From an uncultured Erysipelotrichaceae bacterium (lineage in GTDB: Bacteria > Bacillota_I > Bacilli_A > RF39 > UBA660): a stretch of DNA of 64,000 nt. The number at the start of each line of letters is the position of its first letter. The stretch's first letter is position 1. Shown piece after piece: positions 8,787 through 30,145 of this stretch. The stretch is from contig CADANC010000001.1 of assembly GCA_902789225.1 (NCBI GenBank), positions 201,438 to 265,437 on the forward strand. The letters are read 5' to 3'. A program made the position numbers and the translations under genes. A model generated the notes under the pieces. That model was not told where the DNA came from, ran no database searches, and worked only from the letters and a program-made list of their open reading frames with translations.

Positions 8787-8828
8787 CTATATCACCTAAA
8801 CTTTCTAACCTATTACATTATAACACAT

Positions 8829-9689: not shown

Positions 9690-9730
9690 AATTCTATCAC
9701 AAAAAAGATATACGCGAATAGAGAATATTA

Positions 9731-10063
9731 TTATAAACGTAAATTATCAATTACTTCAATGTCAACAATACTATCAATATCAATTATAGTATTTAAAAGA
9801 TATATCTTCTTTCTATAATTATCTATCTTTTTAATCTTACCACTACTTTCTATATAATTATCTCCATCATAATATTTAACTCTAATTAAATTATTTTTAT
9901 TTATATTATTCAAACAATTATTAATTTCATTATTATAGTCATCATCTAAATATATAAATTTATCTTTATATTTAATATTTTTAGTCTTATTAATTAAACT
10001 TCCATATCCACTGAGAGCATCAAAAGCAAGAAACTGTTTAGCTCTATCTAATCTATTCTGCAT
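9731..10063 (-). CDS. YolD-like protein (UmuD-equivalent partner of Y-family polymerases in Firmicutes)
   Basis: 110 aa. It lies immediately downstream of, and overlapping, the UmuC-like gene. The size and position are typical of YolD-like proteins. Confidence 0.5.
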   Translation of the reverse strand: MQNRLDRAKQFLAFDALSGYGSLINKTKNIKYKDKFIYLDDDYNNEINNCLNNINKNNLIRVKYYDGDNYIESSGKIKKIDNYRKKIYLLNTIIDIDSIVDIEVIDNLRL

Positions 10064-11336
10064 TGTGTCCTCCTACAAATTTATTTCTATTAAGTTGATT
10101 TGCACCTTCCGTATAACTAATTCCTCTAAGTATGCTATTCTTACCATATTTATTTTTTATTTTAGAAACATTTCTTAATAAAGAATATTCTTTCTCATTA
10201 TCATCAATATCATTAAATAAATCCAATTGTTTATTAATATTATTTGTAATATGAAAACTTATTCCAATTCTTCGAACAGGATAATCTTTATTAATATTAT
10301 GATCATATAAATCTAATATACATTTACTTATATCATCAAAACCACAAGTACTATTATCTAATTTTTTACTAACATTAAGTCCTTTAATTTTATCTTTACT
10401 ATATCCTATATATAATGATAAACAATCAGAAAAATATCTCTTAGTAATTAATTCCATTACTAAATCATCAATCATTTCAGTAAGCACAATTCTAGCTTTT
10501 GAATATGTATAATCATGAAACAAAATTTGTGAAGAAGAAATACTTCTACTTTTAGGAACATATTTTTTTATATCACTAATAGTAGTAGTTTCTATTCCCC
10601 AAGAGTGATCAATAAGTAATCTAGCATTAATACCAAATTCACTAAATAATGTAGCCTCATCATAATGAGCTAAATCATACATATCAAATATACCTAATCT
10701 ATTTAAATGAGTTGAAATGCCTCTTCCAATAGACCAAAATTTATCTAAAGGTTTATAATGCCATAAATATTTTTTAAATAATTCTTCATTCAAATATCCT
10801 ATATGAGAATCATTATGCTTAGAAATAATATCAAGAGCAATCTTTGCAAGATATAAATTAGTACCAATACCAGCAGTAGCAGTAATACCAGTCTTTTCAT
10901 ATATCTTATCCATAACCATTTTAGCAATCCTCCTAGAATTATCACCATATAAATATAGATAAGGATTAAGATTAATAAAAACTTCATCAATCGAATAAAC
11001 ATGTATATCTTCATCGCTAAAAAAATCTAAATAAATATTATATATATATGAAGAAACTTCCATATAAAATCTCATTCTAGGTTTAGCAATTATATAATCA
11101 ATATCATCAGGTATCTCAAATAATCTACATCTACTACCAACACCTAATTCTTTAATATGAGGTGAAGCCGCCAAACAAATAGTACCTTTACCCCTAGATT
11201 CATCTGCTACAACCAAATTAACTTTAAAAGGATCAAGCCCCCTCGCAACACATTCACAAGAAGCATAAAAACTTTTTAAATCAATACATAAATACATTTG
11301 TTCGTCACCTCTACTTATATTATAATTATCGAACAT
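10053..11336 (-). CDS. Y-family translesion DNA polymerase, UmuC-like
   Basis: Has LCIDLKSFYASCECV (the YASCE UmuC signature) followed by palm, fingers and little-finger regions. 427 aa. Confidence 0.8.
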   Translation of the reverse strand: MFDNYNISRGDEQMYLCIDLKSFYASCECVARGLDPFKVNLVVADESRGKGTICLAASPHIKELGVGSRCRLFEIPDDIDYIIAKPRMRFYMEVSSYIYNIYLDFFSDEDIHVYSIDEVFINLNPYLYLYGDNSRRIAKMVMDKIYEKTGITATAGIGTNLYLAKIALDIISKHNDSHIGYLNEELFKKYLWHYKPLDKFWSIGRGISTHLNRLGIFDMYDLAHYDEATLFSEFGINARLLIDHSWGIETTTISDIKKYVPKSRSISSSQILFHDYTYSKARIVLTEMIDDLVMELITKRYFSDCLSLYIGYSKDKIKGLNVSKKLDNSTCGFDDISKCILDLYDHNINKDYPVRRIGISFHITNNINKQLDLFNDIDDNEKEYSLLRNVSKIKNKYGKNSILRGISYTEGANQLNRNKFVGGHNAE

Positions 11337-11442
11337 TTGTTTTTCAATATTAATTTAATTTTTTTAACAAAAAAAACAGATACCTAAGTATCTAAAGATT
11401 TTTAAGCGTAAATATTTACATAAAAAAAGATGTGCAATCACA

Positions 11443-11919
11443 TCATTTATTTTCTTTATAAGATACATAATTATCTTCTTGAACTATATCATAAGGATTT
11501 TCAAAATAAGCAACAATACCATCATCTGTTAATTCTATTTTTTTAATATTAGTTGCTAACTTAGTAGTAGGAAATTCATCTACTAACTCTAAATGATATA
11601 AATTATAATCTTTATCAATATAATATATATTAGCAGTTGCTCCACTAAATCCAGATAATTGTTCAACTTGTCTAGCCTTAATTGAAATAGTTTTAGTACC
11701 ATCACCAAATTCGTTTTTAAAAGTATATTCAACTAAAGATGAACCATATTCATCATTAGAATCATCACTAACTGTTGGTGTAGTACTAGGAGTAGCAACA
11801 ACTTCTTCATCTTCTACATCATCTAATTTATCTAAATTATTATGTTGATAAACAAAAACTGCTACAATACCAACTACAATTAATGCAATCATCATAAATA
11901 AATAACTATGTTTACTCAT
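11443..11919 (-). CDS. Membrane-anchored hypothetical protein
   Basis: 158 aa with an N-terminal TM helix and an acidic linker. Confidence 0.5.
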   Translation of the reverse strand: MSKHSYLFMMIALIVVGIVAVFVYQHNNLDKLDDVEDEEVVATPSTTPTVSDDSNDEYGSSLVEYTFKNEFGDGTKTISIKARQVEQLSGFSGATANIYYIDKDYNLYHLELVDEFPTTKLATNIKKIELTDDGIVAYFENPYDIVQEDNYVSYKENK

Positions 11920-11931
11920 AAAAACCTCCTG

Positions 11932-12558
11932 TTATTTAGCATTTCCCTCCGTATAATCAACAAATAAATAATCATCTAAATATTTGTCATTAAAACCGAT
12001 TATATGCTTATTATCTTTACACTTATTAGCTGCATAACTAAAGAAATCTCCAATTACATCATAAGCTAAATGAATATTAAAATCTTTACTATTATTATCT
12101 AAAGTACGAAGATTTTCTTCAGCGCTTATTGTATCACTTTCTACAATATTATTAAAAGTATCATTAAGAAGATCTAATCTTTTTATATGTTTCATTAATA
12201 TTTTTTCATTAAATTCAATTATATCTTTCATCTCATTTAACATATCACTTCTAGCTATTCTAGCACTTTTACTTTTAGTTTTCAAAGATTTAATTTTTCT
12301 ATTATATTTTTTCTTTTCATCAACTAATTTACGTAAACGAGAAAATATGTTCTTTTTAATGAAATAATCCATTATAACTTTATCAGCAATAAATCTTTCA
12401 TTTTTATTTAATTTACTATAATTATCATCACTTAATTTATATTCATTAACTATATCGTAACCCAATAAAATATCATCATCTGTTTCAACAAAAGGCTTAC
12501 TAACAGTTTCAATATTAATATTAAATTCACTAGCATCATATGGAGTAAATTTATTCAC
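11932..12558 (-). CDS. Hypothetical protein
   Basis: 208-aa ORF with consistent codon usage. Confidence 0.5.
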   Translation of the reverse strand: MNKFTPYDASEFNINIETVSKPFVETDDDILLGYDIVNEYKLSDDNYSKLNKNERFIADKVIMDYFIKKNIFSRLRKLVDEKKKYNRKIKSLKTKSKSARIARSDMLNEMKDIIEFNEKILMKHIKRLDLLNDTFNNIVESDTISAEENLRTLDNNSKDFNIHLAYDVIGDFFSYAANKCKDNKHIIGFNDKYLDDYLFVDYTEGNAK

Positions 12559-12611
12559 ACTACCACCTTCAATTCTATATTTATTATAGAAATATAATCA
12601 ATAAAAATCAA

Positions 12612-13226
12612 CTACAAATCAATTCTACCTATACATGTAAGTTCTTCATTATCTTCTACTTTTGCTAAGATATTTGTACCTCTTAATAAATTACCAAATA
12701 GATTACTATCTGTAAGTAATCCACATACCAAACCATCACTAGTACTACCCATTATCCTACACCAAATCTGTTCAGTATCATTTTCTTTATTAAAATTAAC
12801 TAAAATAATATCAGGATTACTTTTTAACCTATATTTATCTAATTCAACAATATTTCTAATATCAAGTATATGAGAATCACTATAATAAGGATTTAACATC
12901 TTATCAACTAATTCCTTATATTTAAAATTTTCTACTTCAACAACTTCAACATTTTTAATATCATCATATCTTAAAATATAAGGAATACCTACAATTAGAT
13001 TATTATTATCATCACCTAATATTCTTAAACTAATACCCTTTTCATGATCAATATAAATAACCCCGTAAAAAGGAACATCTAATTTTAAATCAATTACTTT
13101 TAATATATTAGTATCATCCAATTGAATTATCATCTTATCAATATCTCTAAAATTAAAATCAATAATTTTCATAAAAACACCCAATAAAATTATAACATAA
13201 AAAAAGACAGGCCAAAGGCCTATCAA
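12612..13226 (-). CDS. Hypothetical protein
   Basis: 204-aa ORF. The true start may be the internal MKIIDF. Confidence 0.45.
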   Translation of the reverse strand: MIGLWPVFFYVIILLGVFMKIIDFNFRDIDKMIIQLDDTNILKVIDLKLDVPFYGVIYIDHEKGISLRILGDDNNNLIVGIPYILRYDDIKNVEVVEVENFKYKELVDKMLNPYYSDSHILDIRNIVELDKYRLKSNPDIILVNFNKENDTEQIWCRIMGSTSDGLVCGLLTDSNLFGNLLRGTNILAKVEDNEELTCIGRIDL

Positions 13227-13370
13227 AAAGTTTTTAAGAAAGTTTATGAAAAATTAATAATTATTTTATGTTTTGTATCTGAAATTTCTAATTGCATCAC
13301 TCCTTCTCTTCATAATACAACTATACACAATAATTATGTATAAAATATGAAAGAATTATGTGAAATTATG

Positions 13371-15014
13371 TTATTTAAACCAATAATCATTAAATGTATA
13401 TTTATAAACTCTATATACTTGATTTTTATTTAATTTAACTTTAAAAGATTTAATAGCATTATGATTAGAATCATATTCACTAAATTGACCATTAATCGCA
13501 CTATCTATTAATATATTACCATTATCTAAAACTTGAGCATTACCATTAATACCAGAATATGAAACAATAAAACTATCTACAAGTTCAAAAGACTTATTAT
13601 CTTCATCTATTTTATATTTATAAAACATAGATTTAGTTCCGGTATTAACTTCTGTATTAGTAATACCTAAATCTTTATAAATTTCTTTATTTATAGAATA
13701 ACTAGATTGATTAGCATAATTATTATTAAACATAGTAATATATTGATCATTATATCTACAATCACTTTGTCCAGCATTAATAACAAAGTCACCTTTTTTT
13801 TCAAATACTAAATCATAATAATTAGTATCCTTCCATAACTCTTTAGCTCCAATGATATAACTAATTTTAGGTTCATTATTAATATTATCTACTTTAATAA
13901 TAGAAGATGTTTCTCTACTACTAACTAATATACTATTATCAATATATTCTATAGAATTAAGTCCTAAATAATTTAAACCATTACTATTAATATCTTTAAT
14001 AGTATCAGGATTATCTTCACAAAACTCAATATAATCACTAAAAATACTACTAAAATCAACTAAATTAGTTATTTCATGAGTATCAGTATTAATCATAATA
14101 ATTTGATCTTCAACAGTCTTTTTCTTAGTATCACTAGTAATAACTAACAAGTTACCTTTATCATCAAAAGTATAATCATAATTAATTTTATAATTCTTAG
14201 TACTATAAATATCTACAACTTCACCCAAATTATTCATTTTAACTATCTTTTTACTAGAAATAGAAAAATACATATAATTATCTTTAAATAATATCTTATT
14301 AGCACGATAATTCATAATAGGAATTTCACTTCTCAAAATACCATCATTATCATACATAGCTAGATAATTGCCTGATCCACTATCATTTCCTAATACAGTA
14401 TAAAGTCCATCATATAAATTAGTATCATCAGAACTTTCACTTATTTTTAACTTAGCTTGACTCTTAGTCTTTTGATTAACCAAATCAACTTCAAAATTAT
14501 ATTTTTGAGAAACATTATTATTTTCATCAAGAAGTTCTATCTTAATATTATTTAAATATCCAGGTACTAATCCAATAATTTGATAAGCATGTTTCGAAGT
14601 CAAATTACCATTCAAAACTTTACTAAAATCATGAATATTTTCATCATCAACACTAATAGTATATTTAACATTATATTTCTCTTTAGTACTAAAATACATA
14701 TTAACAGATTGAGTATTAGTACCATAAGCATTATATAAAATAAAAGGTTCATTTAAAGTATAAGACATATTTAATTTATCATGAATTTTTTCATCAATAA
14801 CTTTTCTATAATTATCAGAATATATATTAATAGAGTTATCTTTATCAACAACATATATTCCACCACTCTTAACAAGTTTTACATTATCTTTTAACCATTC
14901 ATAATCATTAATATGGTCTTTATTAACTATAGATTTAAACTTATTAAATGAAAAAAATATAACAATTACAATAATAATAAAAACAATTAATCTTATAGCA
15001 CGATATTTATTCAT
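13371..15014 (-). CDS. Membrane-anchored extracytoplasmic protein, possibly arylsulfotransferase (ASST)-like beta-propeller
   Basis: 547 aa with an N-terminal TM helix. The size and Asn/Tyr-rich repeats are reminiscent of ASST; this is a weak assignment. Confidence 0.3.
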   Translation of the reverse strand: MNKYRAIRLIVFIIIVIVIFFSFNKFKSIVNKDHINDYEWLKDNVKLVKSGGIYVVDKDNSINIYSDNYRKVIDEKIHDKLNMSYTLNEPFILYNAYGTNTQSVNMYFSTKEKYNVKYTISVDDENIHDFSKVLNGNLTSKHAYQIIGLVPGYLNNIKIELLDENNNVSQKYNFEVDLVNQKTKSQAKLKISESSDDTNLYDGLYTVLGNDSGSGNYLAMYDNDGILRSEIPIMNYRANKILFKDNYMYFSISSKKIVKMNNLGEVVDIYSTKNYKINYDYTFDDKGNLLVITSDTKKKTVEDQIIMINTDTHEITNLVDFSSIFSDYIEFCEDNPDTIKDINSNGLNYLGLNSIEYIDNSILVSSRETSSIIKVDNINNEPKISYIIGAKELWKDTNYYDLVFEKKGDFVINAGQSDCRYNDQYITMFNNNYANQSSYSINKEIYKDLGITNTEVNTGTKSMFYKYKIDEDNKSFELVDSFIVSYSGINGNAQVLDNGNILIDSAINGQFSEYDSNHNAIKSFKVKLNKNQVYRVYKYTFNDYWFK

Positions 15015-15086
15015 AAAATCCCTCTTAAAAAAATATTATCAAATTATTTATATAAATACAACAAAAGAAAAAGAAGGCAAAGCCTT

Positions 15087-15590
15087 CTAAACAGCAATAA
15101 ATCTTTTTTGATTTACACTTTTTTCATTTTGTGAAGCATCTTTTAATTCTTTATCATAACTTCTAGCCATACTAACTAATAAATCATGATAATCATAATC
15201 ATTAGATCCTGTAATTGCATTAGTTATATCTTGAACTCTAGTTCTAAAATTAATCAAACCAACTTCATATAAAAATTTAGAATATTCAACACAAATAGAA
15301 TCAATATATGAATCAACGATTTCCCTGTCATTCTTATCTAAACTATCAGCTAATAAAATATTACCAACAGCTCTTTCTCTTACATAACAATTTCTAACAA
15401 ATTCTGAATTCATATCTTTATTACTAATATCAATATAGTCTCTAGCAAGATCCATTGCTTCACCAAGTTCATTTAAGACATCAACAAAATATCCAAAAGA
15501 CTTTTGATCATATTCTTTATCCCCAAGTAAATCTTTTACTCTTTGAGATCTAGCAGTATTTTTAACAATTTGTGATTCATCTGTAAACAC
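15087..15590 (-). CDS. Hypothetical protein
   Basis: 167-aa ORF. Confidence 0.5.
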   Translation of the reverse strand: MFTDESQIVKNTARSQRVKDLLGDKEYDQKSFGYFVDVLNELGEAMDLARDYIDISNKDMNSEFVRNCYVRERAVGNILLADSLDKNDREIVDSYIDSICVEYSKFLYEVGLINFRTRVQDITNAITGSNDYDYHDLLVSMARSYDKELKDASQNEKSVNQKRFIAV

Positions 15591-15676
15591 TTTACTTCCC
15601 CCTCACTTGTTTTAACACAAACGCTAATAAAATACCACAAAATCATCAAAAAGTCAAGAAAAAAGCCAGTTATAAG

Positions 15677-17698
15677 TTAGCCTTTTTCTATAGAATTAAT
15701 TAACTTTTCTTTTAATACTTTATCAGCTTTTCTATTTTCTAAGAATTCTTCAGAATCTTTCTTTGCTTGTAAAAGTATTTTATAATCACTTCTTATATTT
15801 GCAATTCTAAATATCATATCTCCAGATTGTTTAGTTCCAAATAAATCTCCATGACCTCTCAATTTAAAATCTTCTTCACTGATTTCAAATCCATCATCAC
15901 ATCTTTCCATAATTGATAAACGTTCTGTATCACTATCACTTATTAAAATACATTTACTTTTATCAGCACCTCTACCTACTCTACCTCTTAACTGATGTAA
16001 TGTAGAAAGACCAAATCTATCTGCATCAAATATTACCATGCATGTTGCATTAGGAACATCTACTCCAACTTCTACAACAGTAGTAGAAATAAGAATTTGA
16101 ACTTCATTATTTTTAAATTTATCCATTATGATATCTTTAGCACCATTAGCCATCTTACCATGAATAATATCTATCTTATAATATTCTCCAAAAGCTAAAG
16201 ACATATCTTCTTTTAATTGAATTACACTAGTCAAATCACTATTTTCATTAGCATCTTCAATTAATGGAGCAATTACATATATTTGATGATGTTGTTTTAA
16301 TTCTTCCAACATCATATTTAATACATCTTTAATTTCATCATTTCTTTTTAAAATTGTTTCTATCTTTTGTCTATTATTAGGTTTTTCTTTAATAGTAGAA
16401 ACATCCATATCACCATAAATAGTTAATGCATAAGTTCTAGGTATAGGTGTAGCACTCATATATAAAACATCAGGTCTAATACCTTTATTTTGTAAATTAG
16501 CTCTTTGATGAACTCCAAATCTATGTTGTTCATCAGTAACAACTAAACCTAAATTATTATAAGAAACATCATCTTGAATTAATGCATGTGTTCCAATAAT
16601 AATATTAATTTTTCCTTCTTCTAACTCTTTATATATTTTAGTTTTATCCTTTTTAGGAGTAGAACCAGTCAATAATGCAACTTTAATATCTTTATAATCT
16701 TTTAAGAATTTAACTAAATTATTATAATGTTGAGTTGCAAGTATTTCTGTAGGAGCCATTAAAGCACCTTGATAACCAGAATAATAATTAATAATTAAAG
16801 CTACAAATGACACAATAGTTTTACCACTACCAACATCACCTTGTAATAATCTATTCATTCTACCTTTACTACCAAGATCTTTTAATATTTCATCAATTAC
16901 TTTTAACTGATCATTAGTTAATTGGAAAGGAATTTTACTAATTATTTCATCAACTTTACTTCTATCAATAACTCTTTCTAAGCCATGCTCTTCTTTTTTC
17001 TTTAGATATTTTAAATAATTAATTTTAAACATAAAATTAAATAATTCTTCATATTTTAACCGAATAGTTACTTCTTTTAATTTATCCATTGTACTAGGAT
17101 TATGAATAACATTTAAAGATGTTTTTTTATTTAAAAAGTTATACTTTACCCTGTACTCTTCAGGTATATAATCTTCAATATCATTACCAAATTCTAATAA
17201 TGCCATATTTATATATGAAGATAAAGTCTTACTAGTTAATCCACTAGTAGAATGATAAACAGGCTCTATTCTAGTTTTATCAGAAAGCCCACCCATCTTT
17301 ATCTCATTAGCAGTTATAACATTCTTGGTCTTATCATATTTACCAATAACTGTAATAGTAGTTCCTATATTTAATTGACTTTTTAAAAATGCTCTATTAA
17401 AAATAGATATTCCTACTACTCCACTAGGAGTAACTAACCTAAAATTCATTTTATTTAGTCCTGCTTTAAATCTCATTAAAAGAGGAACACTTTCTATTCT
17501 TCCATCTATAACAATTTTATCTCCATCTTTAGTAGTTAATAAGTTACATCTTTCAAGTAATTCATACCTAAATGGATAATGAGTAACTAAATCATCTATT
17601 GTATTTATACCAATTTTGTTTAATAAGGTTAACGATTTAGGTCCAACCCCTCTAACATCTTTTAAAAGAGCCACACTGATCACCACGCCTTCTCGCAT
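15677..17698 (-). CDS. recG: ATP-dependent DNA helicase RecG
   Basis: Wedge domain followed by the helicase motifs GDVGSGKT, DEQHRFG and QLRGRVGRG. The start is taken at MREGVV... (the ATG at 17698) rather than the longest ORF start at 17833. Confidence 0.9.
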   Translation of the reverse strand: MREGVVISVALLKDVRGVGPKSLTLLNKIGINTIDDLVTHYPFRYELLERCNLLTTKDGDKIVIDGRIESVPLLMRFKAGLNKMNFRLVTPSGVVGISIFNRAFLKSQLNIGTTITVIGKYDKTKNVITANEIKMGGLSDKTRIEPVYHSTSGLTSKTLSSYINMALLEFGNDIEDYIPEEYRVKYNFLNKKTSLNVIHNPSTMDKLKEVTIRLKYEELFNFMFKINYLKYLKKKEEHGLERVIDRSKVDEIISKIPFQLTNDQLKVIDEILKDLGSKGRMNRLLQGDVGSGKTIVSFVALIINYYSGYQGALMAPTEILATQHYNNLVKFLKDYKDIKVALLTGSTPKKDKTKIYKELEEGKINIIIGTHALIQDDVSYNNLGLVVTDEQHRFGVHQRANLQNKGIRPDVLYMSATPIPRTYALTIYGDMDVSTIKEKPNNRQKIETILKRNDEIKDVLNMMLEELKQHHQIYVIAPLIEDANENSDLTSVIQLKEDMSLAFGEYYKIDIIHGKMANGAKDIIMDKFKNNEVQILISTTVVEVGVDVPNATCMVIFDADRFGLSTLHQLRGRVGRGADKSKCILISDSDTERLSIMERCDDGFEISEEDFKLRGHGDLFGTKQSGDMIFRIANIRSDYKILLQAKKDSEEFLENRKADKVLKEKLINSIEKG

Positions 17699-22198: not shown

Positions 22199-22948
22199 TT
22201 AAAATTTAAAATCACCAAAGTCATCGTTTTTATCAGTAACCTTATTTCTATTTCTAAATAAGAAATAATATACTCCAAATCCTGTTATTCCTAAAAAAAC
22301 AAGAATTAATATAACAAGAACAATAGTATTCGCATTATTCTTTTTAATTTCTTCATTAGTTACAAATAAGAATAATTCTGTATTATCTTCATTAGATTTA
22401 TTAATTATCCAAGAATATACTCCATCTTTAGATATAGAAGTAGCATTACTATCAACAACAAATTTATCTGTTTTGACATTAACTTTTACTTGTCCACCAC
22501 CACTACAATAAAATTTTCCTTTAAAGATAATCAAAAAACCATTCTCATAATTACCTATATATGCTTCATCAAAACAAGTATTATATACTTTAGAATCTAA
22601 ATAATCTGACAAAGTATAGTTATATCTTAAAGTAACTATCTTTTTATCACCTTTAGTCTCAACTTTTTTATCATAAACAATTGTATTATTGTCCTCAAAA
22701 ACATATTGATCGTTTTCAATAAAAGATGCCAATTTATTATTAAGTTTAATCTCTGCTTTTTGATTTGCAATATTTTGAGAAGAAATTTCAGAATTATCGA
22801 TAGTAGAAACAATTTCCTCAGTAACAGTATTACCTCTAAAAGTTAAATTATATTCACTACTACATCCAGTTAAACATAGCATTAAAATTATAATTATAAT
22901 CAATAATAATTTTTTCTTCATACTTTTCTCATCCTTAAAATTTCTCAC
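22199..22948 (-). CDS. Lipoprotein with a C-terminal TM anchor, hypothetical
   Basis: Lipobox LTGC and a C-terminal hydrophobic helix. Its start overlaps the stop of the upstream paralog (ATGA). Confidence 0.55.
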   Translation of the reverse strand: MRNFKDEKSMKKKLLLIIIIILMLCLTGCSSEYNLTFRGNTVTEEIVSTIDNSEISSQNIANQKAEIKLNNKLASFIENDQYVFEDNNTIVYDKKVETKGDKKIVTLRYNYTLSDYLDSKVYNTCFDEAYIGNYENGFLIIFKGKFYCSGGGQVKVNVKTDKFVVDSNATSISKDGVYSWIINKSNEDNTELFLFVTNEEIKKNNANTIVLVILILVFLGITGFGVYYFLFRNRNKVTDKNDDFGDFKF

Positions 22949-24018
22949 GTATTACTATTTATAAAATTATATATTTTTTCATATGTAGCTTTATCATAAT
23001 GTACTCCATCACCACTGTGCCAACCGGCACTATTTAAATAACCATATGCATCTAAATAAGTAACATCACCAGATAAAGAACTTTTCATCTTATTATTAAA
23101 TTCAGGAATTCTAGTTGATAACGTTCCAGAACTACCTTGAGTAACAGAAACAAAATACGTTTTTGCTCCCTTACCTTTCCATTCCGCAGCCTTACTATTT
23201 ATATAAGAAATATAACCATTTACATTATGCAAATCATTTACTCCCATCAAGATAATTATCCTATTGTCACTAGCAATACTACCCTCTATATTAGGTACAC
23301 CAGTACTTTTCATCCAATCAAGCCCCATAGATCCTTTACAAGACCAAACATCATTTTTTGAATCTGTAGTACCAGAAGCTAATTTATTAACAGTAGAACT
23401 ATTCCAATCACCAAATAAATTAATATACATTTGAACAGTTCTAGAATCTCCTATAAAAAATTTTCTATTTCCAGAAGATCCAGGACCTAAATTACTACTT
23501 CCCGAAGAAGTATTTCCTCTACCAGATCCGCCATTATTTCTTTTATTTTGTCTTTCTTTTTCTTTCTCTTTATATATTTTATTAGGATCAACTCCACTAG
23601 ATCCTTCCCCTACATCTGCATCAGTTATTTTTACTGTAGTTCCATCTCCATATGGAGACTCAGGCTGTTGATATGAAGAACTAGTCGAAAATGCAGTATC
23701 TCTTGCCTTATCCCAACAATCAGCTACATCAAATACACTAAGTCCTCCTTGACTAATAGCCCACATTAATAAATTAACAATATATGGAAGTAAAAATATA
23801 ACTACAGTCGCAATCAATTGATTAGATATTTGTTTTTTTAGTTTTTGTTCTTCCTTAACATCTTTAAACTTAACTAATTTAAATAAATTTATTCCTAAAC
23901 CAACAAGTAATAAAACAGGTGCAGCAATATGTAAAATAACTAATGCTCTGACAAAAATAGCTAATATAGGAATAATAGCATGATTACTACAAACAGATAC
24001 TAAGTCCATTATTAACAT
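22945..24018 (-). CDS. Paralog family P1: N-terminal 2-TM hairpin module + SGNH/GDSL hydrolase domain
   Basis: The N-terminal 165 aa are near-identical to P2. The C-terminal domain has SGNH blocks FIGDSRT, GVNDL and DGVHYD. Confidence 0.7.
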   Translation of the reverse strand: MLIMDLVSVCSNHAIIPILAIFVRALVILHIAAPVLLLVGLGINLFKLVKFKDVKEEQKLKKQISNQLIATVVIFLLPYIVNLLMWAISQGGLSVFDVADCWDKARDTAFSTSSSYQQPESPYGDGTTVKITDADVGEGSSGVDPNKIYKEKEKERQNKRNNGGSGRGNTSSGSSNLGPGSSGNRKFFIGDSRTVQMYINLFGDWNSSTVNKLASGTTDSKNDVWSCKGSMGLDWMKSTGVPNIEGSIASDNRIIILMGVNDLHNVNGYISYINSKAAEWKGKGAKTYFVSVTQGSSGTLSTRIPEFNNKMKSSLSGDVTYLDAYGYLNSAGWHSGDGVHYDKATYEKIYNFINSNT

Positions 24019-24045
24019 ATTATTACACCTCCTTATAAATATATA

Positions 24046-25350
24046 TTAATCTAAATTATATGATTTAGAATTATAATAAGAAAAACCATTTGATTTACAA
24101 TATTCGGCTATTTCTTTTTCTTTAGAATTACTAGCTCCATATTCTAACAGATAAACCATTAAATTTTTAGATTTAACAGTTTTTAAATAATTTTTATAAT
24201 ATTTAGTTTCACTACTAGTTTGGTTTCTATATGTATGATTATCAAAATTAATAAGAGTAAATACTTCTTCTTGATTAACACCATCAAATAAATTATTATA
24301 AGTACCTTCATTAATTGCTTTAGAAACAAATTCGTCTCCACCATTAATCAAAATAGGTAAATTATGACTATGAACAGAACTAAGTATAGTTTTTAAACCA
24401 TTATATATTTTTTCTTTCTTAAAATTTGCATAAACATCACAATTATCTATAAAATAGCCATCAGCACCTTTATTTCTTAAAGATGGTTCTAATTCATTGA
24501 TAATATAATCTTGAAAAGACTTTTTACTAACGTCTACCCATTTCTCATCTTCCCAATTTTCATAGGTACCTAAATAATAATCCTTAAATTTATTATAATA
24601 ATTTCTATACTTTTCAACAGAACCAATATTCAAATATGAATACACTTTAATTCCGTTTTCATGTAATTTATCAACATCTTCTTTTGAATATTCTTGTAAG
24701 TCAATAACAACCAATTTATATTTTAATAGTTTATTTATTCCATCACCATGATCTAAACCTAAAAACACTCCATAACTAGATTCAACTGAACGATTATCAC
24801 TAGAGTTTCCAAATGAATTACCGGAAGAATTACTAGATGAATCAGAAGATCCATTTGATGAAGAATTATTTCTTTTATTTTGTCTTTCTTTCTCTTTATC
24901 TTTATAAATTTTATTAGGATCAACTCCACTAGATCCATCTTCTACATCTGCATCAGATATTTTTACTATTGTACCATTACCATTTGGAGACTCAGGTTGT
25001 TGATATGATGAGTTTGAAGAAAAAGAAATCTTTCTTGCACTATCCCAACAATCAGCTACATCAAATACACTAAGTCCTCCCTGACTAATAGCCCACATTA
25101 ATAAATTAACAATATATGGAAGTAAAAATATAACTACAGTCGCAATCAATTGATTAGAAATTTGTTTTTTTAGTTTTTGTTCTTCCTTAACATCTTTAAA
25201 CTTGACTAATTTAAATAAATTAATTCCTAATCCAACAAGTAATAAAATAGGCGCAACAATATGTAAAATAACTAACGTTCTAACAAATACAGCTAAAATA
25301 GGAATAATAGCATGATTGCTACAAACTGAGACTAAATCAAGTATTAGCAT
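24046..25350 (-). CDS. Paralog family P2: N-terminal 2-TM hairpin module + GH114-like (endo-alpha-1,4-polygalactosaminidase/TM1410-like) TIM-barrel domain
   Basis: The C-terminal domain reads VVIDLQEYS...LHENGIKVYSYLNIGSVEKYR...WVDV...GADGYFIDNCDVY, which matches the GH114 pattern as I recall it. Confidence 0.6.
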   Translation of the reverse strand: MLILDLVSVCSNHAIIPILAVFVRTLVILHIVAPILLLVGLGINLFKLVKFKDVKEEQKLKKQISNQLIATVVIFLLPYIVNLLMWAISQGGLSVFDVADCWDSARKISFSSNSSYQQPESPNGNGTIVKISDADVEDGSSGVDPNKIYKDKEKERQNKRNNSSSNGSSDSSSNSSGNSFGNSSDNRSVESSYGVFLGLDHGDGINKLLKYKLVVIDLQEYSKEDVDKLHENGIKVYSYLNIGSVEKYRNYYNKFKDYYLGTYENWEDEKWVDVSKKSFQDYIINELEPSLRNKGADGYFIDNCDVYANFKKEKIYNGLKTILSSVHSHNLPILINGGDEFVSKAINEGTYNNLFDGVNQEEVFTLINFDNHTYRNQTSSETKYYKNYLKTVKSKNLMVYLLEYGASNSKEKEIAEYCKSNGFSYYNSKSYNLD

Positions 25351-25388
25351 ATTATCACACCCCCTTATAAAATCTTATTTTAGATAAA

Positions 25389-25832
25389 TTAATCATCTGC
25401 ATTTTCAGAATCATTTGGATTAACATTATTAGAACCTTCAGGAAAAGCATCATTATCTATTATTCTAATAACATTGCCTCCTCGTTGAGTGTTTCCACTA
25501 CCTCCACCATTAGAAGGACTAACTTGTCCCATATTATCTAAATTATTCCAACATTCAGTAAGTACAGTATTATTACCTACTAAATACATAACAATATTTA
25601 TAAATAAAGGAATAAAGAATATAGTTACTAAAGCAACTAAACTATTTTTAATTCTTTTTTTATTCTTTTCCATTTCTCCTATATCTGAATTACCAACCAT
25701 CTTAAACAAAGTTATCATTAAAGATACGATTGCAAGAACAGGACCCAGTATTTGAATAATAGTTAGTCCTCTTTTAAGAACCATCAATATAGGATATATT
25801 CCTCCACAATGTAAACTTTCACCAATTAACAT
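25389..25832 (-). CDS. Paralog family P3: N-terminal 2-TM hairpin module only, with a short Gly/Asn-rich tail (headless)
   Basis: 147 aa. It shares the P-L-V..I..I.GP.LA..SL....FK.V and N.VMYLVG...ECWN motifs with P4 and P5. Confidence 0.6.
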   Translation of the reverse strand: MLIGESLHCGGIYPILMVLKRGLTIIQILGPVLAIVSLMITLFKMVGNSDIGEMEKNKKRIKNSLVALVTIFFIPLFINIVMYLVGNNTVLTECWNNLDNMGQVSPSNGGGSGNTQRGGNVIRIIDNDAFPEGSNNVNPNDSENADD

Positions 25833-25836
25833 CTAA

Positions 25837-27150
25837 TCACCCGCAATTCTGTGTTAAATTTGTAATTCTAATACCAACCCACCTATTTTGTTCATGTCCA
25901 TATACTTTTCCCTTGCTTATTTCAGAAACCCATTTATAGTTTCTTCCTTGTTGATAATAACTTCCACCATCATACCCAGTAACAGTACCTTTCTTTTTAT
26001 CAACTTCACCTATAAAAGCTACATGAAACCAACCACTCCAGGTATCTGGATTTTTCGGATCAATTGAGTTATGAAAGAAATGAACTATATCACCAACTTG
26101 TAAATCCTCAATATTTGAAATGATTTCATAGTTTCTACCCAATGATTTAAAGGACGCTGAAGAAGTTGGCTGTCCATTACCACCAAATAAACCAGCTTTA
26201 TAATAAACCATATCAACAGTCCAATTACAATTAGTCGTCATATTAACTCCATTAGCACCGGTAATTAATTTATCGAAATCTTTTACCGGTCCTGAAAGAC
26301 CTCCACCATCATTTCTCATAGTACCAGGATAAAAAGCATCACTAGTACCTGTACCTGCTGAAGATCCTTCTTTTTCATAATATAAGCAACTTCCACCCCA
26401 TTTACAATAGTGACCATTACTTCCTCGACCATTAAAATAATCAAATCCATATAAATACATTAATCCAAAAACATACTCAGCTACTTCTTGTAATTCACCA
26501 GCAGTAGTTACTTGAACATCTCTACCATAATATTTACTAAATACTCCACCTAAAGATCTAATATAACTAGGAGCATTAGCAGGACTAAAAGTACTATAAT
26601 CAAAATCATTTAAATGTTTTTCAATAATACCCATAGTTTCTGCATCAAAAGAAGATTTAACTGTATTATTAGGTTCAACAAATCTAGGACAATATCCTTT
26701 ATTAGGATTTATACCAGTACTACCTCTTTCGTAATCACCAGGATCAACATAAACCTTTTGAATAGACTTTCCTGTATTATCATCTATTCCATCTCCATCT
26801 TCATCAACAAATTCATGACCTTTAAATTCACTTTTTGAAGTAAATGTAACAGTATCTATAGTATTCCAACACTTAGTAACTCTAAAATTATCACCAACTA
26901 AATACATAACTAAATTAATTAGCAACGGTAAAAAGAATAGTACAGCTAATGCAACTAAACTATTTCTAATTCCCTTAAGATTTTTATCTTTATTATTCAT
27001 AGATGAGTCAGTAACCAATTTAAAAGATATAATACCTAAAGATACTAAAGCTAAAACCGGACCTATTATATGAATAATATCAATTACATTTTTAAAAACT
27101 TTAAGTAACGGCATTAAAGCATAATCATTACAACTAACATCTAATATCAT
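25837..27150 (-). CDS. Paralog family P4: N-terminal 2-TM hairpin module + CHAP/NlpC-P60-type papain-like amidase/peptidase domain
   Basis: Has the catalytic Cys in CNWTVDMVYYKAGLFGG and His in WFHVAFIGEVD. It is about 80% identical to P5. Confidence 0.65.
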   Translation of the reverse strand: MILDVSCNDYALMPLLKVFKNVIDIIHIIGPVLALVSLGIISFKLVTDSSMNNKDKNLKGIRNSLVALAVLFFLPLLINLVMYLVGDNFRVTKCWNTIDTVTFTSKSEFKGHEFVDEDGDGIDDNTGKSIQKVYVDPGDYERGSTGINPNKGYCPRFVEPNNTVKSSFDAETMGIIEKHLNDFDYSTFSPANAPSYIRSLGGVFSKYYGRDVQVTTAGELQEVAEYVFGLMYLYGFDYFNGRGSNGHYCKWGGSCLYYEKEGSSAGTGTSDAFYPGTMRNDGGGLSGPVKDFDKLITGANGVNMTTNCNWTVDMVYYKAGLFGGNGQPTSSASFKSLGRNYEIISNIEDLQVGDIVHFFHNSIDPKNPDTWSGWFHVAFIGEVDKKKGTVTGYDGGSYYQQGRNYKWVSEISKGKVYGHEQNRWVGIRITNLTQNCG

Positions 27151-27195
27151 AATTATCCCTCTACTATTAATTATTTTATCATAGTTATATTAAAA

Positions 27196-27226
27196 AAATA
27201 ATACCAAGTGGTATTATTTTACAATT
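27196..27226 (-). terminator. Intrinsic terminator after P5
   Basis: On the minus strand, aaataatacc-actt-ggtattattt followed by a T-run. Confidence 0.5.
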
Positions 27227-27242
27227 TAGAATAATTACATAA

Positions 27243-28520
27243 TTATCCACAATTTTGAGTTAAATTTGTAATTCTAACAGCAGACCAGTTCTCAGTACCA
27301 TGAAGTTTTCCACTCTTCATTTCAGACACCCACTTATAATTCTTATTATTAGTAAAATAACTTCCTCCATCATAACCAGTAACAGTACCTTTTTTCTTAT
27401 CAACCTCTCCAACAAAAGCAACATGATACCAATCAGACCAAGTATCAGGATTGCTTCTATCTATACTATGTTCAAAGAAGTGTAATATATCTCCAACTTG
27501 TAAATCTTCTATATTTGATATTACTTCGTAATTTCTACCCATAGATTTGAATGAAGCAGATCCATGAGGCTGCCCATTGCCACCAAACAAACCTGCTTTA
27601 TAATAAACCATATCAACAGTCCAGTTACAATTAGTTGTCATATTAACTTCAGAACCGCCAGTAATCAATTTATCAAAATTTGATGTAGGACCAGAAAGAC
27701 CATCACTAGTATGAGTAACTCCTGGAGGATAAAACGCATCATTTTCTCCACTATTAGGAGCATTACAACTTCCACCCCACTTACAATATTTTGAACCATT
27801 ATAGTAATCAAAACCATATATATACATTAAACCAAAAACATATTCAGAAACTTCTTGTAATTCACCAGCTGTAGTTACTTTAACATCTTTACCATAATAT
27901 TTACTAAATACTCCACCCAAAGATCTAATATAACTAGGAGAACTAGATGCATTAAAACTACTATAATTAAAATCATTATAATGTTTTTCAACTATATTCA
28001 TAGTTTCAGCATCAAAAGAAGATTTTACTGAATTGTTAGGTTCAACAAATTGAGGACAAATACCTGATTTATTAGGATTTATTCCAGTACTACCTCTCTC
28101 ATATTCACCAGGATCAGTATAAACTTTTTGAATAGATTTCCCTGTAATATCATCTATTCCATCTCCATCTTCATCAATAAATTCATGACCTTTAAATTCA
28201 TTTTTAGAACTAAATGTAATAGAATCAACTTTATTCCAACATTCGCTTACTCTAAAATTATCATCAACCAAGTACATAACTAGATTAATAAGCATCGGTA
28301 AAAAGAATAGCACTGCTAATGCGACTAAACTATTTTTGATACCTTTTAGATTTTTATCTTTATTATTCATAGAAGCATCAGTAACTAATTTAAAAGTTAA
28401 AATGCCTAAAGATAGTATAGCCAAAACAGGCCCAACTATATGAATAATATCTATTGCATTTTTAAACACCTTAAGTAATGGCATTAAAGCATAATCATTA
28501 CAACTAACATCTAATATCAT
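27243..28520 (-). CDS. Paralog family P5: N-terminal 2-TM hairpin module + CHAP/NlpC-P60-type domain (tandem duplicate of P4)
   Basis: Same architecture as P4, with CNWTVDMVYYKAGLFGG and WYHVAFVGEVD. Confidence 0.65.
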   Translation of the reverse strand: MILDVSCNDYALMPLLKVFKNAIDIIHIVGPVLAILSLGILTFKLVTDASMNNKDKNLKGIKNSLVALAVLFFLPMLINLVMYLVDDNFRVSECWNKVDSITFSSKNEFKGHEFIDEDGDGIDDITGKSIQKVYTDPGEYERGSTGINPNKSGICPQFVEPNNSVKSSFDAETMNIVEKHYNDFNYSSFNASSSPSYIRSLGGVFSKYYGKDVKVTTAGELQEVSEYVFGLMYIYGFDYYNGSKYCKWGGSCNAPNSGENDAFYPPGVTHTSDGLSGPTSNFDKLITGGSEVNMTTNCNWTVDMVYYKAGLFGGNGQPHGSASFKSMGRNYEVISNIEDLQVGDILHFFEHSIDRSNPDTWSDWYHVAFVGEVDKKKGTVTGYDGGSYFTNNKNYKWVSEMKSGKLHGTENWSAVRITNLTQNCG

Positions 28521-28559: not shown

Positions 28560-28591
28560 CAAAAATAATACCAAACGGTATTATTTTACAA
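28560..28591 (-). terminator. Intrinsic terminator after the phosphodiester glycosidase gene (duplicated with the P4/P5 unit)
   Basis: On the minus strand, aaataataccgtttggtattatt followed by a T-run. Near-identical to the 27196-27226 element. Confidence 0.5.
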
Positions 28592-29597
28592 TCCAAAATG
28601 TTGGCATATCTCTTAGTCCATATTTACCACCTGCAACAGGTGTATTAATAATCTCATTATTAATAACTAATTCACTAGAAGAACCTCCATCTAAATTAGC
28701 AGCATTTATAGCACCAAAATCTTCCATAAGATCACATAAATCAACCATATCAGCCCCAATAGAAGAAGCAATTCTACCATTGATTACTAGGAATATTACT
28801 ATTCCATCACTTCTTTGTCCAATAGCAGTTCTAGGAGAAATACCCCAACCTCCATTACCTTTTACAAAACTTCTTTTTCCATTAATTATTAAAAAAGGTC
28901 CAAATTCTACAGCATCTCTCATGCCCATATTTAAAGCTTCTTGAGCACTCATTTTACCTAGAATGAGTTTATCATTAGAATCAAATCCAATAAATCCTCC
29001 ACCCATTCCAGCACCATTATAAGAACTAACTATTTTACCATCTTGAATGACAGTACCATGTGGAATAGCACCATTGCTATTCCAATCAGGATCATAAAAA
29101 CCACCTGCATTCATAGCAACAATAGCATTTTCTCTTTTACTAACTGTTAAAATATCTTCTCCTCTCTTTTTAAGATATTTAGTAGTTGCAATTCCAACTC
29201 TACTAGGATCATATATCGCAACAGCATATCCCTGATATCCAGTTCCACTAACTTCTATCAGTTTATATAGATCATCTTTATCATGATCTAACAATTCTTT
29301 TTCATATTTATTTCTATATATACTAGTAGTATATTTTTTAAATTGAATCATATTAGGATCAGTAACATCATTACCTTCAACAACTGTATTATTATTAAGA
29401 ACTTTTTGTATTGTTTTATCTGAATAAAATAAAGTTGCTAAATATCTATGATTTTTAGTTGTCATAGCAGTAGTAATCCAGAAATTTCTAAAGCCAGACC
29501 AAGGACCATAAAATAAAAACGTAAAACTAAAAAGAAAAAGAGAATCTAAAATAATAAAAGTAATTAAATATTTCTTTTTAATATTTAGTAATTTCAT
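28581..29597 (-). CDS. Phosphodiester glycosidase family protein (NAGPA/DUF2233-like), membrane-anchored
   Basis: N-terminal TM helix. The AMNAGGFYDPDWNSNGAIPHGTVIQDGKI block is typical of this family. Confidence 0.55.
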   Translation of the reverse strand: MKLLNIKKKYLITFIILDSLFLFSFTFLFYGPWSGFRNFWITTAMTTKNHRYLATLFYSDKTIQKVLNNNTVVEGNDVTDPNMIQFKKYTTSIYRNKYEKELLDHDKDDLYKLIEVSGTGYQGYAVAIYDPSRVGIATTKYLKKRGEDILTVSKRENAIVAMNAGGFYDPDWNSNGAIPHGTVIQDGKIVSSYNGAGMGGGFIGFDSNDKLILGKMSAQEALNMGMRDAVEFGPFLIINGKRSFVKGNGGWGISPRTAIGQRSDGIVIFLVINGRIASSIGADMVDLCDLMEDFGAINAANLDGGSSSELVINNEIINTPVAGGKYGLRDMPTFWIVK

Positions 29598-29599
29598 AT

Positions 29600-30145
29600 T
29601 TATCTACCATCATATTCCTTATCTTTATTATAGTCTATATAATCCCTGGTAGTTTTATAAGTTTCTAATTTATTTTCATTTACTTCATTATAAGTTTCAA
29701 TATTCTTATTATAAGTAGAAACATCTCCTACAAAGAAGTTGTTTACTTGTTCATAAACTAACTTATAATCTTTACATTTCTTATTAACTGAATTATCTGA
29801 ATAATAAGAATCATCACATAATTCATTTAAATCACCAACTAAATATTGAATAGTATTAACTTTATTTTCAAAATCCAAAAAAGCTTGTTTAATACTTTGA
29901 TCATTCACAAAATATTCATCATATGAAGCACTCTCTAAAACACTAGAATATAAACTCTCTCTAGCATTTTCAAAATCAATTACATCTTTATTAAACTTTT
30001 CATAATTTTTAAGTACCTTCTTACCATTAGCTTCTACATTAGCATGATCTTCTTTTAAACCATTAATATACATAGAAAAAGATCCACCCATTATTAGAAA
30101 CAATCCTATAGCAAATAAAATATAAGGTAATTTTGAATTCTTCAT
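29600..30145 (-). CDS. Membrane-anchored hypothetical protein
   Basis: 181 aa with an N-terminal TM helix. Confidence 0.5.
   Translation of the reverse strand: MKNSKLPYILFAIGLFLIMGGSFSMYINGLKEDHANVEANGKKVLKNYEKFNKDVIDFENARESLYSSVLESASYDEYFVNDQSIKQAFLDFENKVNTIQYLVGDLNELCDDSYYSDNSVNKKCKDYKLVYEQVNNFFVGDVSTYNKNIETYNEVNENKLETYKTTRDYIDYNKDKEYDGR

Follow-up and report, generated by a model that had tools for sequence, protein, structure and literature searches.

What is the N-terminal module that five consecutive genes of an uncultured Erysipelotrichaceae bacterium place in front of differing enzymes, and what might it be used for? The genes lie on the minus strand at positions 22945-28520 of a 64-kb stretch of contig CADANC010000001.1 (assembly GCA_902789225.1, positions 201,438 to 265,437), which we analyzed as a whole and refer to as the window. 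All five products are publicly annotated as 'hypothetical protein [Bacilli bacterium]', and an initial annotation from the sequence described their common module as a two-helix membrane hairpin that could not be placed in any known family, proposing it as a new anchor or sorting module. We found that profile matches place the module in PF18895, a pilin family of monoderm type IV secretion systems (T4SS), and that it carries enzyme heads at some 40 loci, nearly all of which have no T4SS genes nearby. We propose that a T4SS pilin-family hairpin has been exapted as a T4SS-independent anchor or scaffold for envelope-remodeling enzymes, with both of its ends outside the membrane (N-out/C-out), a proposal that we favor while holding its chances to be about even.

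Five paralogs share an N-terminal module

The array consists of five open reading frames (ORFs) at the coordinates where they had initially been called, which we named par1 to par5 in order of rising coordinate (lengths in amino acids, aa):

22945-24018, minus strand: par1, 357 aa; N-module at 23704-24018, SGNH/GDSL-type head at residues ~186-357 (22948-23463)
near 23538, minus strand: apparent recombination junction of par1 with par2
24046-25350, minus strand: par2, 434 aa; N-module at 25036-25350, GH114 head at residues 211-431 (24058-24720)
near 24870, minus strand: apparent recombination junction of par2 with par1
25389-25832, minus strand: par3, 147 aa, headless; N-module at 25518-25832, followed by a linker-type tail only
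25837-27150, minus strand: par4, 437 aa; N-module at 26836-27150, disordered linker at residues 106-151
25840-26673, minus strand: NlpC/P60-like head of par4 (residues ~160-437)
27243-28520, minus strand: par5, 425 aa; N-module at residues 1-105 (28206-28520), then linker
27246-28043, minus strand: NlpC/P60-like head of par5 (residues ~160-425)

In each paralog a shared module of ~100-150 aa is followed by a part that differs between copies. The family hidden Markov model (HMM) matched par1 to par5 at E = 1e-37 to 1e-44 and none of the remaining ORFs of the window, and since only these five match at such values, the shared module is not a product of chance. Alignment of the module revealed invariant positions P17, L19, P34, F46, K47, N66, A70, F75, P78, N82, M85 and C101-W102, and a second motif common to all five, G-S-x-G-[VI]-[ND]-P-N (about residues 139-146, inside the linker), which was absent from the earlier description. 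The N-modules of par1 and par2 are ~90% identical at the DNA level, par4 and par5 are 79% identical over their entire length, and par3 is 33-42% identical to the other four paralogs. The intergenic gaps across the array measure 27, 38, 4 and 92 nucleotides (nt) and are too short for interleaved ORFs, which bears out the initial statement that no small immunity-type genes lie between the paralogs. Its statement that the proteins have no Sec signal peptide was likewise upheld, with none found at the N-terminus by sequence.

Profile searches place the module in a T4SS pilin family

A Pfam search matched all five N-modules to PF18895 (T4SS_pilin). Specifically, par3 scored 30.7 bits, above the gathering cut-off of 26.6 bits, and the other four paralogs, which are homologs of par3, scored below the cut-off at 16.2-24.0 bits (E = 4e-5 to 0.011, with 4.3e-5 for par2 and 1.5e-4 for par1). 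The module also weakly matched NCBIfam families of Mycoplasma integrative and conjugative elements (ICEs), namely Mbov_0395 (pilin-like conjugal transfer protein), Mbov_0396 and MMCAP2_0566. On these sequence grounds, the N-module belongs to the monoderm T4SS pilin family PF18895. The view that it fits no known family is overturned, and the proposal of a new anchor or sorting module is refuted on its own terms by the match to a characterized pilin family. The functional class 'T4SS pilin' does not apply to the four headed genes, because they have neither the size of a stand-alone pilin (~70-150 aa) nor the features of a T4SS locus; only par3, with 147 aa, falls within that size, and the other four measure 357-437 aa.

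To reach the wider family required an exhaustive profile search with the module alone, which retrieved 1,787 cluster representatives at E<=1e-3 (clusters at 50% identity, a lower bound) and 341 at E<=1e-10, whereas a word-indexed homolog search with par3 gave only orthologs of 76-97% identity. Among the 150 best matches listed, the match to the module begins within the first ~26 residues. Lengths in the family are bimodal, with 55 of 145 members at 103-198 aa and 90 of 145 at 206-512 aa, and 70 of the 90 longer relatives matched PF18895 at E<=1e-3 (with a best E of 5.7e-12). The heads of these longer relatives are mostly cell-wall enzymes, including NlpC/P60 (15), CHAP (5), C39-like (3), glucosaminidase (3), Amidase_5 (3), M23 (2), NAGPA (2) and GDSL (2) domains, and also comprise S11 DD-carboxypeptidase, Amidase_3, Amidase_6, a metallo-beta-lactamase fold, GH99 and alpha/beta hydrolases. 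In all, the module family bears at least 25 head families, and its heads are mostly peptidoglycan hydrolases. Comparison of module profiles with PDB sequences gave only chance matches to G-protein-coupled receptors or channels (E>0.1), and no match to the module was found by tblastn in 72,556 plasmids or 50,697 phages.

Short members of the family open T4SS operons

We found short headless members with the module HMM in 2 out of ~41 independent loci (L011 and L044), and both are T4SS operons. L011, from an uncultured Bacilli metagenome-assembled genome (MAG), opens with two pilins of 105 and 121 aa (PF18895, 27.9 and 24.2 bits; module HMM, 5e-16 and 5e-25). Next comes a 365-aa protein that begins with a Sec signal and carries the same hairpin C-terminally. 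Behind it lie a membrane protein of 618 aa resembling Mbov_0396/MMCAP2_0566 (8e-14), a gene like TcpE/VirB3 and, last, VirB4, a member of the Mbov_0397 family (7.9e-71). This layout recurs in L044, where VirB6 is of the TrbL type. We also ran the reciprocal test from the T4SS VirB4, which as a query gave over 7,216 homologs at E<=1e-20, with identities above 91% throughout the top 120. In 3 out of 3 contexts (L048-L050), the operon opens with a PF18895 pilin of 124 aa. After it come, in order, a protein of 557-587 aa whose hairpin is C-terminal, TrbL_4/VirB6-like and PrgI-like genes, VirB4 split in two (196 + 596 aa), a 900-aa M23 + lysozyme hydrolase and VirD4. Since the 124-aa pilin carries the full signature (…DICTGG…IAVPIGL…GDEKK…VFLIPIIVN…DCWNN…) and matches the module HMM at 4e-21, sequence comparison makes the window module a homolog of the pilin-position gene of monoderm, Mycoplasma-ICE-type T4SS.

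The likeness between the window module and these Mycoplasma-ICE-type pilins (Mbov_0395/0396/0397; L011, L044 and L048-L050) extends to the N-terminal Cys, the G-P in helix 1, the D/E-K-K loop, the F-x-x-P-x-x-V-N in helix 2 and the C-W-N. The family HMM matches the pilins of the T4SS loci at E = 1e-15 to 1e-25, and the closest relatives are likewise found in uncultured Bacilli. In contrast to the headed window genes, the pilins measure 105-154 aa, are headless and lie directly upstream of VirB6-like, VirB3-like, VirB4, hydrolase and VirD4 genes. Cargo fusions within the T4SS operons place the cargo N-terminal to the hairpin behind a Sec signal, opposite to the order in the window genes. In Mycoplasma agalactiae, transposon hits in CDS15, CDS16 and CDS17 of ICEA abolish transfer (PMC6030558), and the gene order suggests that CDS15 corresponds to Mbov_0395.

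The T4SS cluster itself is chromosomal and very widespread in uncultured gut Firmicutes/Bacilli (L044, 7959-17255; L048-L050, about 2700-16900), with a hairpin protein of 557-611 aa and with WhiA and RmuC as flanking genes; no relaxase was found within 10 kb of it. The C-terminal hairpin occurs there on large Sec-signal proteins (L011, 10436-11533; L044, 8753-10243 and 10359-12194; L048, 4721-6484), with which an N-out/C-out hairpin still fits despite the reversed domain order.

Headed copies lie in housekeeping and envelope neighborhoods

We detected no VirB4, VirB6 or VirD4 in the window with its ±10-kb extensions, about 30 kb on each side. Encoded in the window and extensions are PFOR, RecG, GlmS, NrdD, ScpAB, Tex, DinB and ClpB, as well as GT4 and Alg14/Alg13-like glycosyltransferases and NAGPA. 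The initial description of the array as embedded in a glycan-synthesis locus holds for its upstream side, where GT4, Alg14/Alg13-like and NAGPA genes lie, but not for its downstream side, which is occupied by PFOR and RecG. Similarly, about 39 of 41 headed-copy loci, the window included, are housekeeping or envelope neighborhoods with no T4SS genes nearby. For example, headed copies sit among FtsW, SMC, PNPase and IF2 (L008, the second locus of RUG343, an uncultured Firmicutes bacterium genome), among EzrA, FemAB, rpsD and tyrS (L013), as a four-gene array among SHMT, EF-P and L33 (L012), and beside tsaBDE (L009 and L010). Arrays of 2-5 genes recur across loci, and pairs of headless and headed copies are common.

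Conservation and charge point to a hairpin with both ends outside

Among 150 family members, the N-terminal Cys is conserved in 97%, the Cys of the CW motif in 99% and its Trp in 93%; both helix prolines are conserved in 100%, and the loop reads N-P-D-x-K-K in about 80%. Two AlphaFold2 (AF2) models, one of them of par3, show helices at residues 12-47 and 51/52-85 and place the CW motif on a short third helix at 90-100, with the remaining linker disordered. In the five copies, the loop between the helices has a net charge of +3 to +4, versus 0/+1 for the N-tail and 0 to -2 after the second transmembrane helix (TM2). The corresponding means for the 150 members are +2.6 (loop), +0.1 (N-tail) and -1.3 (the 15 residues past TM2), and in 88% of them the loop exceeds the other segments in positive charge. 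Because the loop is the most positive segment and the heads are enzymes that act outside the membrane, a hairpin with a cytoplasmic loop and both ends outside is the reading consistent with the models. Such a hairpin would place both conserved Cys outside, so that a disulfide between them would be possible. The N-out/C-out hairpin of the initial annotation thus stands at the level of prediction, and the conservation of the flanking Cys pair fits the disulfide clasp that it had predicted.

In a review, CDS13 and CDS15 are called VirB3-like (PMC12857230). A VirB3-like topology with both ends inside (N-in/C-in) is unlikely for the module family, because the heads must be outside and the operons have a separate TcpE/PrgI-type gene.

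The hairpin is joined to the heads by a low-complexity linker of 50-70 residues with a conserved Y...P-x-x-Y-x-x-G motif. Within the linker (~106-150; 26701-26835 in par4), a Tyr ~14 residues past C-W-N is conserved in 79% of the 150 members, and the motif [DN]-P-x-x-Y-x-x-G-[ST]-x-G-[VI]-[ND]-P-N also occurs in headless members; AF2 confidence is low in this region.

Heads are exchanged on a constrained hairpin

The head of par2 is a GH114 domain, as initially suggested, with a match to Pfam PF03537 (Glyco_hydro_114) at E = 3.5e-24 (85.8 bits versus a cut-off of 27) and to the Ega3 structure 6oj1 (endo-alpha-1,4-polygalactosaminidase) at E = 6.4e-11. The SGNH/GDSL assignment of the par1 head is less direct. 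Its match to Lipase_GDSL_2 covers the full profile length but is weak (E = 0.015; 16.2 bits versus a cut-off of 32.9), and no match was found among PDB sequences; nonetheless, par1 holds the four SGNH blocks FIGDS, CKGSMG, GVND and DGVHY (GDS / G / GxND / DxxH) and is 43% identical (E = 2e-83) to a metagenomic homolog (L036:9950-10924) that matches GDSL families at 2.4e-5 and 1.2e-4. The heads of par4 and par5 have the papain-like fold with conserved catalytic Cys and His of the NlpC/P60 (C40) class and are two divergent NlpC/P60-like domains.

That the heads are swappable, as had been proposed, is supported by the comparison of par1 and par2. Their DNA is ~90% identical over nt 1-480 and random thereafter, which points to a clean recombination junction within the linker. 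The GH114 paralog is present in the window and in L001-L004, and it is lacking in L014, an array of 97% identity, as well as in L007 and L016. We further compared selection on the parts of par1, for which the ratio of nonsynonymous to synonymous substitutions (dN/dS) was 0.16 in the hairpin, 0.43 in the linker and 0.13 in the head; by this measure, the hairpin is as constrained as the catalytic domain. The headless copy at 25389-25832 was confirmed as such. Orthologs of par3 (76-97% identity) keep a length of 143-147 aa, and comparison of par3 with the RUG343 ortholog gives dN/dS values of 0.27 for the whole gene and 0.15 for the hairpin, so both length and dN/dS mark par3 as a maintained gene and not a truncation.

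Conserved neighbors of the array

Three further genes adjoin the array:

28581-29597, minus strand: NAGPA-family phosphodiester glycosidase, 338 aa, with its own N-terminal transmembrane (TM) anchor (PF09992, 1.3e-40)
29600-30145, minus strand: 181-aa protein with an N-terminal TM segment, upstream of NAGPA; no Pfam or NCBIfam match
22199-22948, minus strand: 249-aa predicted lipoprotein with lipobox LTGC and a C-terminal TM segment; its start overlaps the par1 stop by 4 nt

NAGPA homologs lie directly upstream of N-module genes in 10 loci, distant lineages included, and homologs of the 181-aa TM protein take the same position in 8 loci. The pair is found in the window (28581-30145), L007, L014, L016, L021, L028, L029, L036, L038 and L045, and the two family members with a NAGPA head carry this enzyme on the module itself. 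Given its 4-nt overlap with the par1 stop, the 249-aa lipoprotein is probably co-translated with the array. N-module genes are followed by a homolog of the lipoprotein in L014 and L046 (E = 6e-13) as well; the head preceding it is C39-like in L046 versus SGNH in the window. Weak matches of the lipoprotein to CD1107-like and TraV families involve TM/signal segments only and were judged to be due to chance. A scan for promoters and terminators performed no better than on shuffles in the AT-rich DNA of the window; on the minus strand, no terminator-like site was found from position 32.5 kb to PFOR, which is compatible with one long transcription unit but no proof of it.

In other loci, an N-terminal-TM protein of 183-206 aa without a family match always follows the glucosaminidase-headed paralog (7 loci: L008, 10964-11584; L009, 9512-10099; L010, 7616-8209; L019, L020, L025 and L033) and is a candidate partner, regulator or immunity protein. 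L010 (CAZHBS010000019.1) is labeled as an uncultured Muribaculaceae MAG, yet shares synteny with locus L009 of a Bacilli MAG, from tsaE/tsaB/rimI/tsaD through a headless copy paired with a glucosaminidase-headed one to a TM protein of 197 aa, and the contig is probably mis-binned.

Proposed exaptation of a pilin hairpin as an enzyme anchor

We propose that, in an uncultured gut and rumen Bacilli lineage, a pilin gene was duplicated away from its T4SS operon, and that exaptation would have turned the duplicated module into a shared anchor or scaffold for the enzymes with which the cell remodels its own wall and glycopolymers. The N-tail of the module, which is short, acidic or neutral and contains a Cys, leads into an amphipathic-then-hydrophobic helix that has an invariant Pro; after the K-rich loop comes another hydrophobic helix, in which a Pro and an Asn are invariant, and then C-W-N. 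On insertion, the loop would lie in the cytoplasm, with the two ends of the hairpin outside, and TM2, preceded by the K-rich loop, could act as an uncleaved internal export signal for the downstream head. The two Cys may form an extracytoplasmic disulfide that ties the hairpin ends, and the linker would position the catalytic head at the membrane's outer face. The anchored enzymes would be expressed together with the NAGPA phosphodiester glycosidase and the glycosyltransferases, and the headless copy would probably serve as a scaffold or partner for the hairpins. We favor this exapted anchor because of the housekeeping contexts, the vertical synteny, the housekeeping-type heads and the absence of T4SS genes, with self-directed envelope remodeling as the most likely function.

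Several points weigh against this proposal. Both the topology and the disulfide are predictions, and the genome of the window was surveyed for T4SS genes only within ±30 kb. Moreover, the hairpin is conserved far beyond the needs of a passive anchor and keeps the exact signature of the T4SS-operon pilins, and a headless copy is maintained inside the arrays, which together suggest more than anchoring, namely that the hairpin still does something pilin-like, such as oligomerizing or docking to VirB6. Finally, variable heads on a constant N-terminus, combined with gain and loss of GH114 at the strain level, are typical of antagonistic effectors.

Enzyme-armed pilins, antagonistic effectors and other alternatives

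Alternatively, the paralogs could be enzyme-armed T4SS pilins, with the headless copy as the major subunit and the headed copies as minor subunits of a filament or channel collar that, with VirB4/VirB6 encoded elsewhere in the genome, opens the cell's own or a partner's wall in conjugation, DNA or protein transfer, or epibiotic or predatory contact. The module's place in PF18895 argues for this, as do the short members with the signature C...P...NPDxKK...F..P..VN...CWN that open T4SS operons (L011, L044 and L048-L050, the last being 3 out of 3 VirB4 contexts), the large operon proteins whose C-terminal hairpin makes cargo fusion already a T4SS theme, and the recurrence of headless and headed pairs. 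In addition, tandem VirB2-like arrays are known from Patescibacteria, one of them reported to be essential (PMC12102498, PMC12857230), and a small TM gene adjoining the VirB6-like and VirB4 genes of a Mycoplasma ICE is needed for transfer (PMC6030558). However, 39 out of ~41 headed loci have no T4SS gene nearby and are vertically inherited housekeeping contexts, the T4SS operons already hold their own 900-aa M23 + lysozyme hydrolase, a head of 280 aa on every subunit would be hard to pack in a filament, and no T4SS pili have been demonstrated in monoderms (PMC12857230). We therefore consider armed pilins unlikely. The more specific scenario in which headless and headed copies co-assemble, alone or through VirB4/VirB6 elsewhere, into an enzyme-armed surface filament or collar that breaches a partner's or the cell's own envelope is distinctly improbable. 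A quite unlikely alternative, which together with armed pilins need not be mutually exclusive, is that the paralogs are polymorphic antibacterial effectors, in which the N-module would be an export or trafficking domain, the heads would attack competitors' walls or exopolysaccharides, and the 249-aa lipoprotein and the 181-aa and 195-206-aa TM proteins would be immunity proteins or regulators. In its favor, the N-terminus is constant and the C-terminal hydrolase heads are swapped, with a recombination junction that falls sharply within the linker; the GH114 copy varies between strains, the heads are rich in peptidoglycan hydrolases, and small membrane proteins are conserved at the array ends. 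Yet there is no gene between the paralogs, in gaps of 4-92 nt, and the lipoprotein is not specific to a head, as it follows SGNH in the window and a C39-like head in L046. The uncleaved two-helix anchor has no evident release site, heads such as DD-carboxypeptidase are of a housekeeping type, synteny is kept within core-gene neighborhoods, and no match was found to PHROGs, plasmid or phage records.

Two further explanations find less room in these data. A wholly new membrane-insertion or sorting module, unrelated to any described family, might be argued from the missing PDB sequence match, from the lack of profile similarity to proteobacterial VirB2/TrbC (hhalign, 0.2%) and from the annotation of all public copies as 'hypothetical protein', but it is highly improbable in view of the PF18895 matches, one of them above the gathering cut-off, the weak matches to NCBIfam ICE pilin-like families and the family members at the pilin position of T4SS operons. 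Scarcely credible, lastly, is a prophage-derived lysis cassette of endolysins fused to a holin-like or signal-arrest-release (SAR)-type membrane segment. We dropped the holin/endolysin idea because none of par1 to par5 matched PHROGs; in addition, tblastn against the 50,697 phage records found no match, the window holds no phage genes, the arrays are conserved in core-gene contexts across lineages, and an N-out/C-out hairpin differs from the topology of class II holins.

Comparison with known systems

Among known systems, the tandem VirB2-like pilin arrays of Patescibacteria resemble the window array in their PF18895 membership, two-helix hairpin, divergent tandem paralogs, monoderm hosts and MPF-FATA-type T4SS (MPF, mating pair formation). 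In that group, 441 arrays of divergent VirB2-like pilins with 2-11 genes each have been described (PMC12102498), compared to 1-5 genes in the Bacilli loci, and the array of one Patescibacterium has been called 'remarkable' (PMC12857230). The Patescibacterial arrays consist of short pilins, often near virB4, and their description is silent on enzyme heads (PMC12102498). In the window, by contrast, 4 out of 5 copies bear enzyme heads of 200-300 aa, and the array lies in a housekeeping/envelope locus with no T4SS gene within ±30 kb. According to the review, a VirB2-like pilin is not among the usual components of Gram-positive T4SS (PMC12857230).

The canonical VirB2/TrbC pilins (PF04956; T-pilin and RP4 TrbC) share the predicted design of the module, in which an amphipathic helix leads into a hydrophobic one, a basic loop connects this to a further hydrophobic helix, and both termini are predicted to lie outside. 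The disulfide of the module might tie the ends together by analogy with the head-to-tail cyclization of T-pilin and TrbC. Unlike canonical TrbC/VirB2, with its long leader cleaved by signal peptidase, the module has its conserved N-terminal Cys 5-15 residues from Met1 with no hydrophobic leader ahead. Comparison of the module family with six annotated proteobacterial VirB2/TrbC proteins by hhalign gave a probability of 0.2%, PF04956 was not among the Pfam matches of the five proteins, and one relative weakly matches DUF4134, the Bacteroides TraE family (3.9e-4). Given this lack of hhalign homology to canonical VirB2, the term 'VirB2-like' rests on the Pfam family, the operon position and the predicted topology. 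Both the module family and VirB2 have I-x-x-[FI]-[IQ]-[LI]-G-P at the opening of the first hydrophobic helix (VirB2 NNICTFILGPFG; module family LTIIQILGPVLA), a likeness that could stem from convergence or be a weak remnant of shared ancestry.

Gram-positive T4SS have VirB1-type hydrolases, including PrgK, TraG of pIP501, CwlT, TcpG and the Tn916/CTn Orf14-type NlpC/P60 proteins, which are anchored by one TM segment or a signal, are encoded as part of the conjugation operon and occur once per element. The window genes also combine an anchor with an NlpC/P60-like head, but a T4SS operon nearby is absent; they differ further in their pilin-family hairpin anchor, their location outside T4SS clusters, their paralog arrays and their heads for polymers other than peptidoglycan (GH114 and SGNH). 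Like polymorphic toxin systems, the array joins variable heads to a constant N-module, has its recombination junction at the linker and varies in content between strains. It differs from them in having no cognate immunity gene per head, an uncleaved anchor and core-genome contexts, and its heads are enzymes of envelope metabolism and not nucleases, deaminases or pore-formers.

Thus the anchor family is known, and it is its use for interchangeable wall- and glycan-cleaving enzymes that appears to be undescribed, as do the fusion architecture, its scale and its detachment from T4SS. In the full-text literature we found no description of pilin-module-to-hydrolase fusions or of such chromosomal arrays in Bacilli, in a limited search that leaves their absence unproven. 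Our findings describe a large PF18895-type family in uncultured gut and rumen Bacilli with two settings, the pilin position of T4SS operons and, chromosome-wide, the N-terminal anchor of enzymes, and they bear on the question of whether monoderm T4SS pilin homologs act beyond conjugation. If the anchor works alone, it would be a lineage-specific way to mount autolysins on the membrane without a Sec signal, and a clear reuse of a secretion-system part for cell-envelope housekeeping. If, on the other hand, the module still polymerizes or docks to a T4SS, it would be a pilin with catalytic cargo. An armed filament, if true, would make pilins with catalytic cargo a functional class among the VirB2-like pilins, the first of its kind, and this in a Gram-positive-type bacterium. 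It would also connect the gut Bacilli, with their small genomes, to the way of life, dependent on T4SS and pilin arrays, that has been proposed for Patescibacteria. In either case, proteins that databases call hypothetical become open to testing through their Cys pair, prolines and CW motif and through the headless copy.

Other features of the window

Elsewhere in the window, positions 1501-2988 (minus strand) hold a toxin-type cassette with a DUF4417 gene (2323-2988, 1.3e-43) and a protein with a bacterial EndoU nuclease domain (1827-2420, 6e-16). The EndoU protein is followed by a 109-aa ORF (1501-1830) without a family match that could be an immunity protein. Unusually, an arylsulfotransferase (PF05935 + N-domain) is encoded among housekeeping genes at 13371-15014, also on the minus strand.

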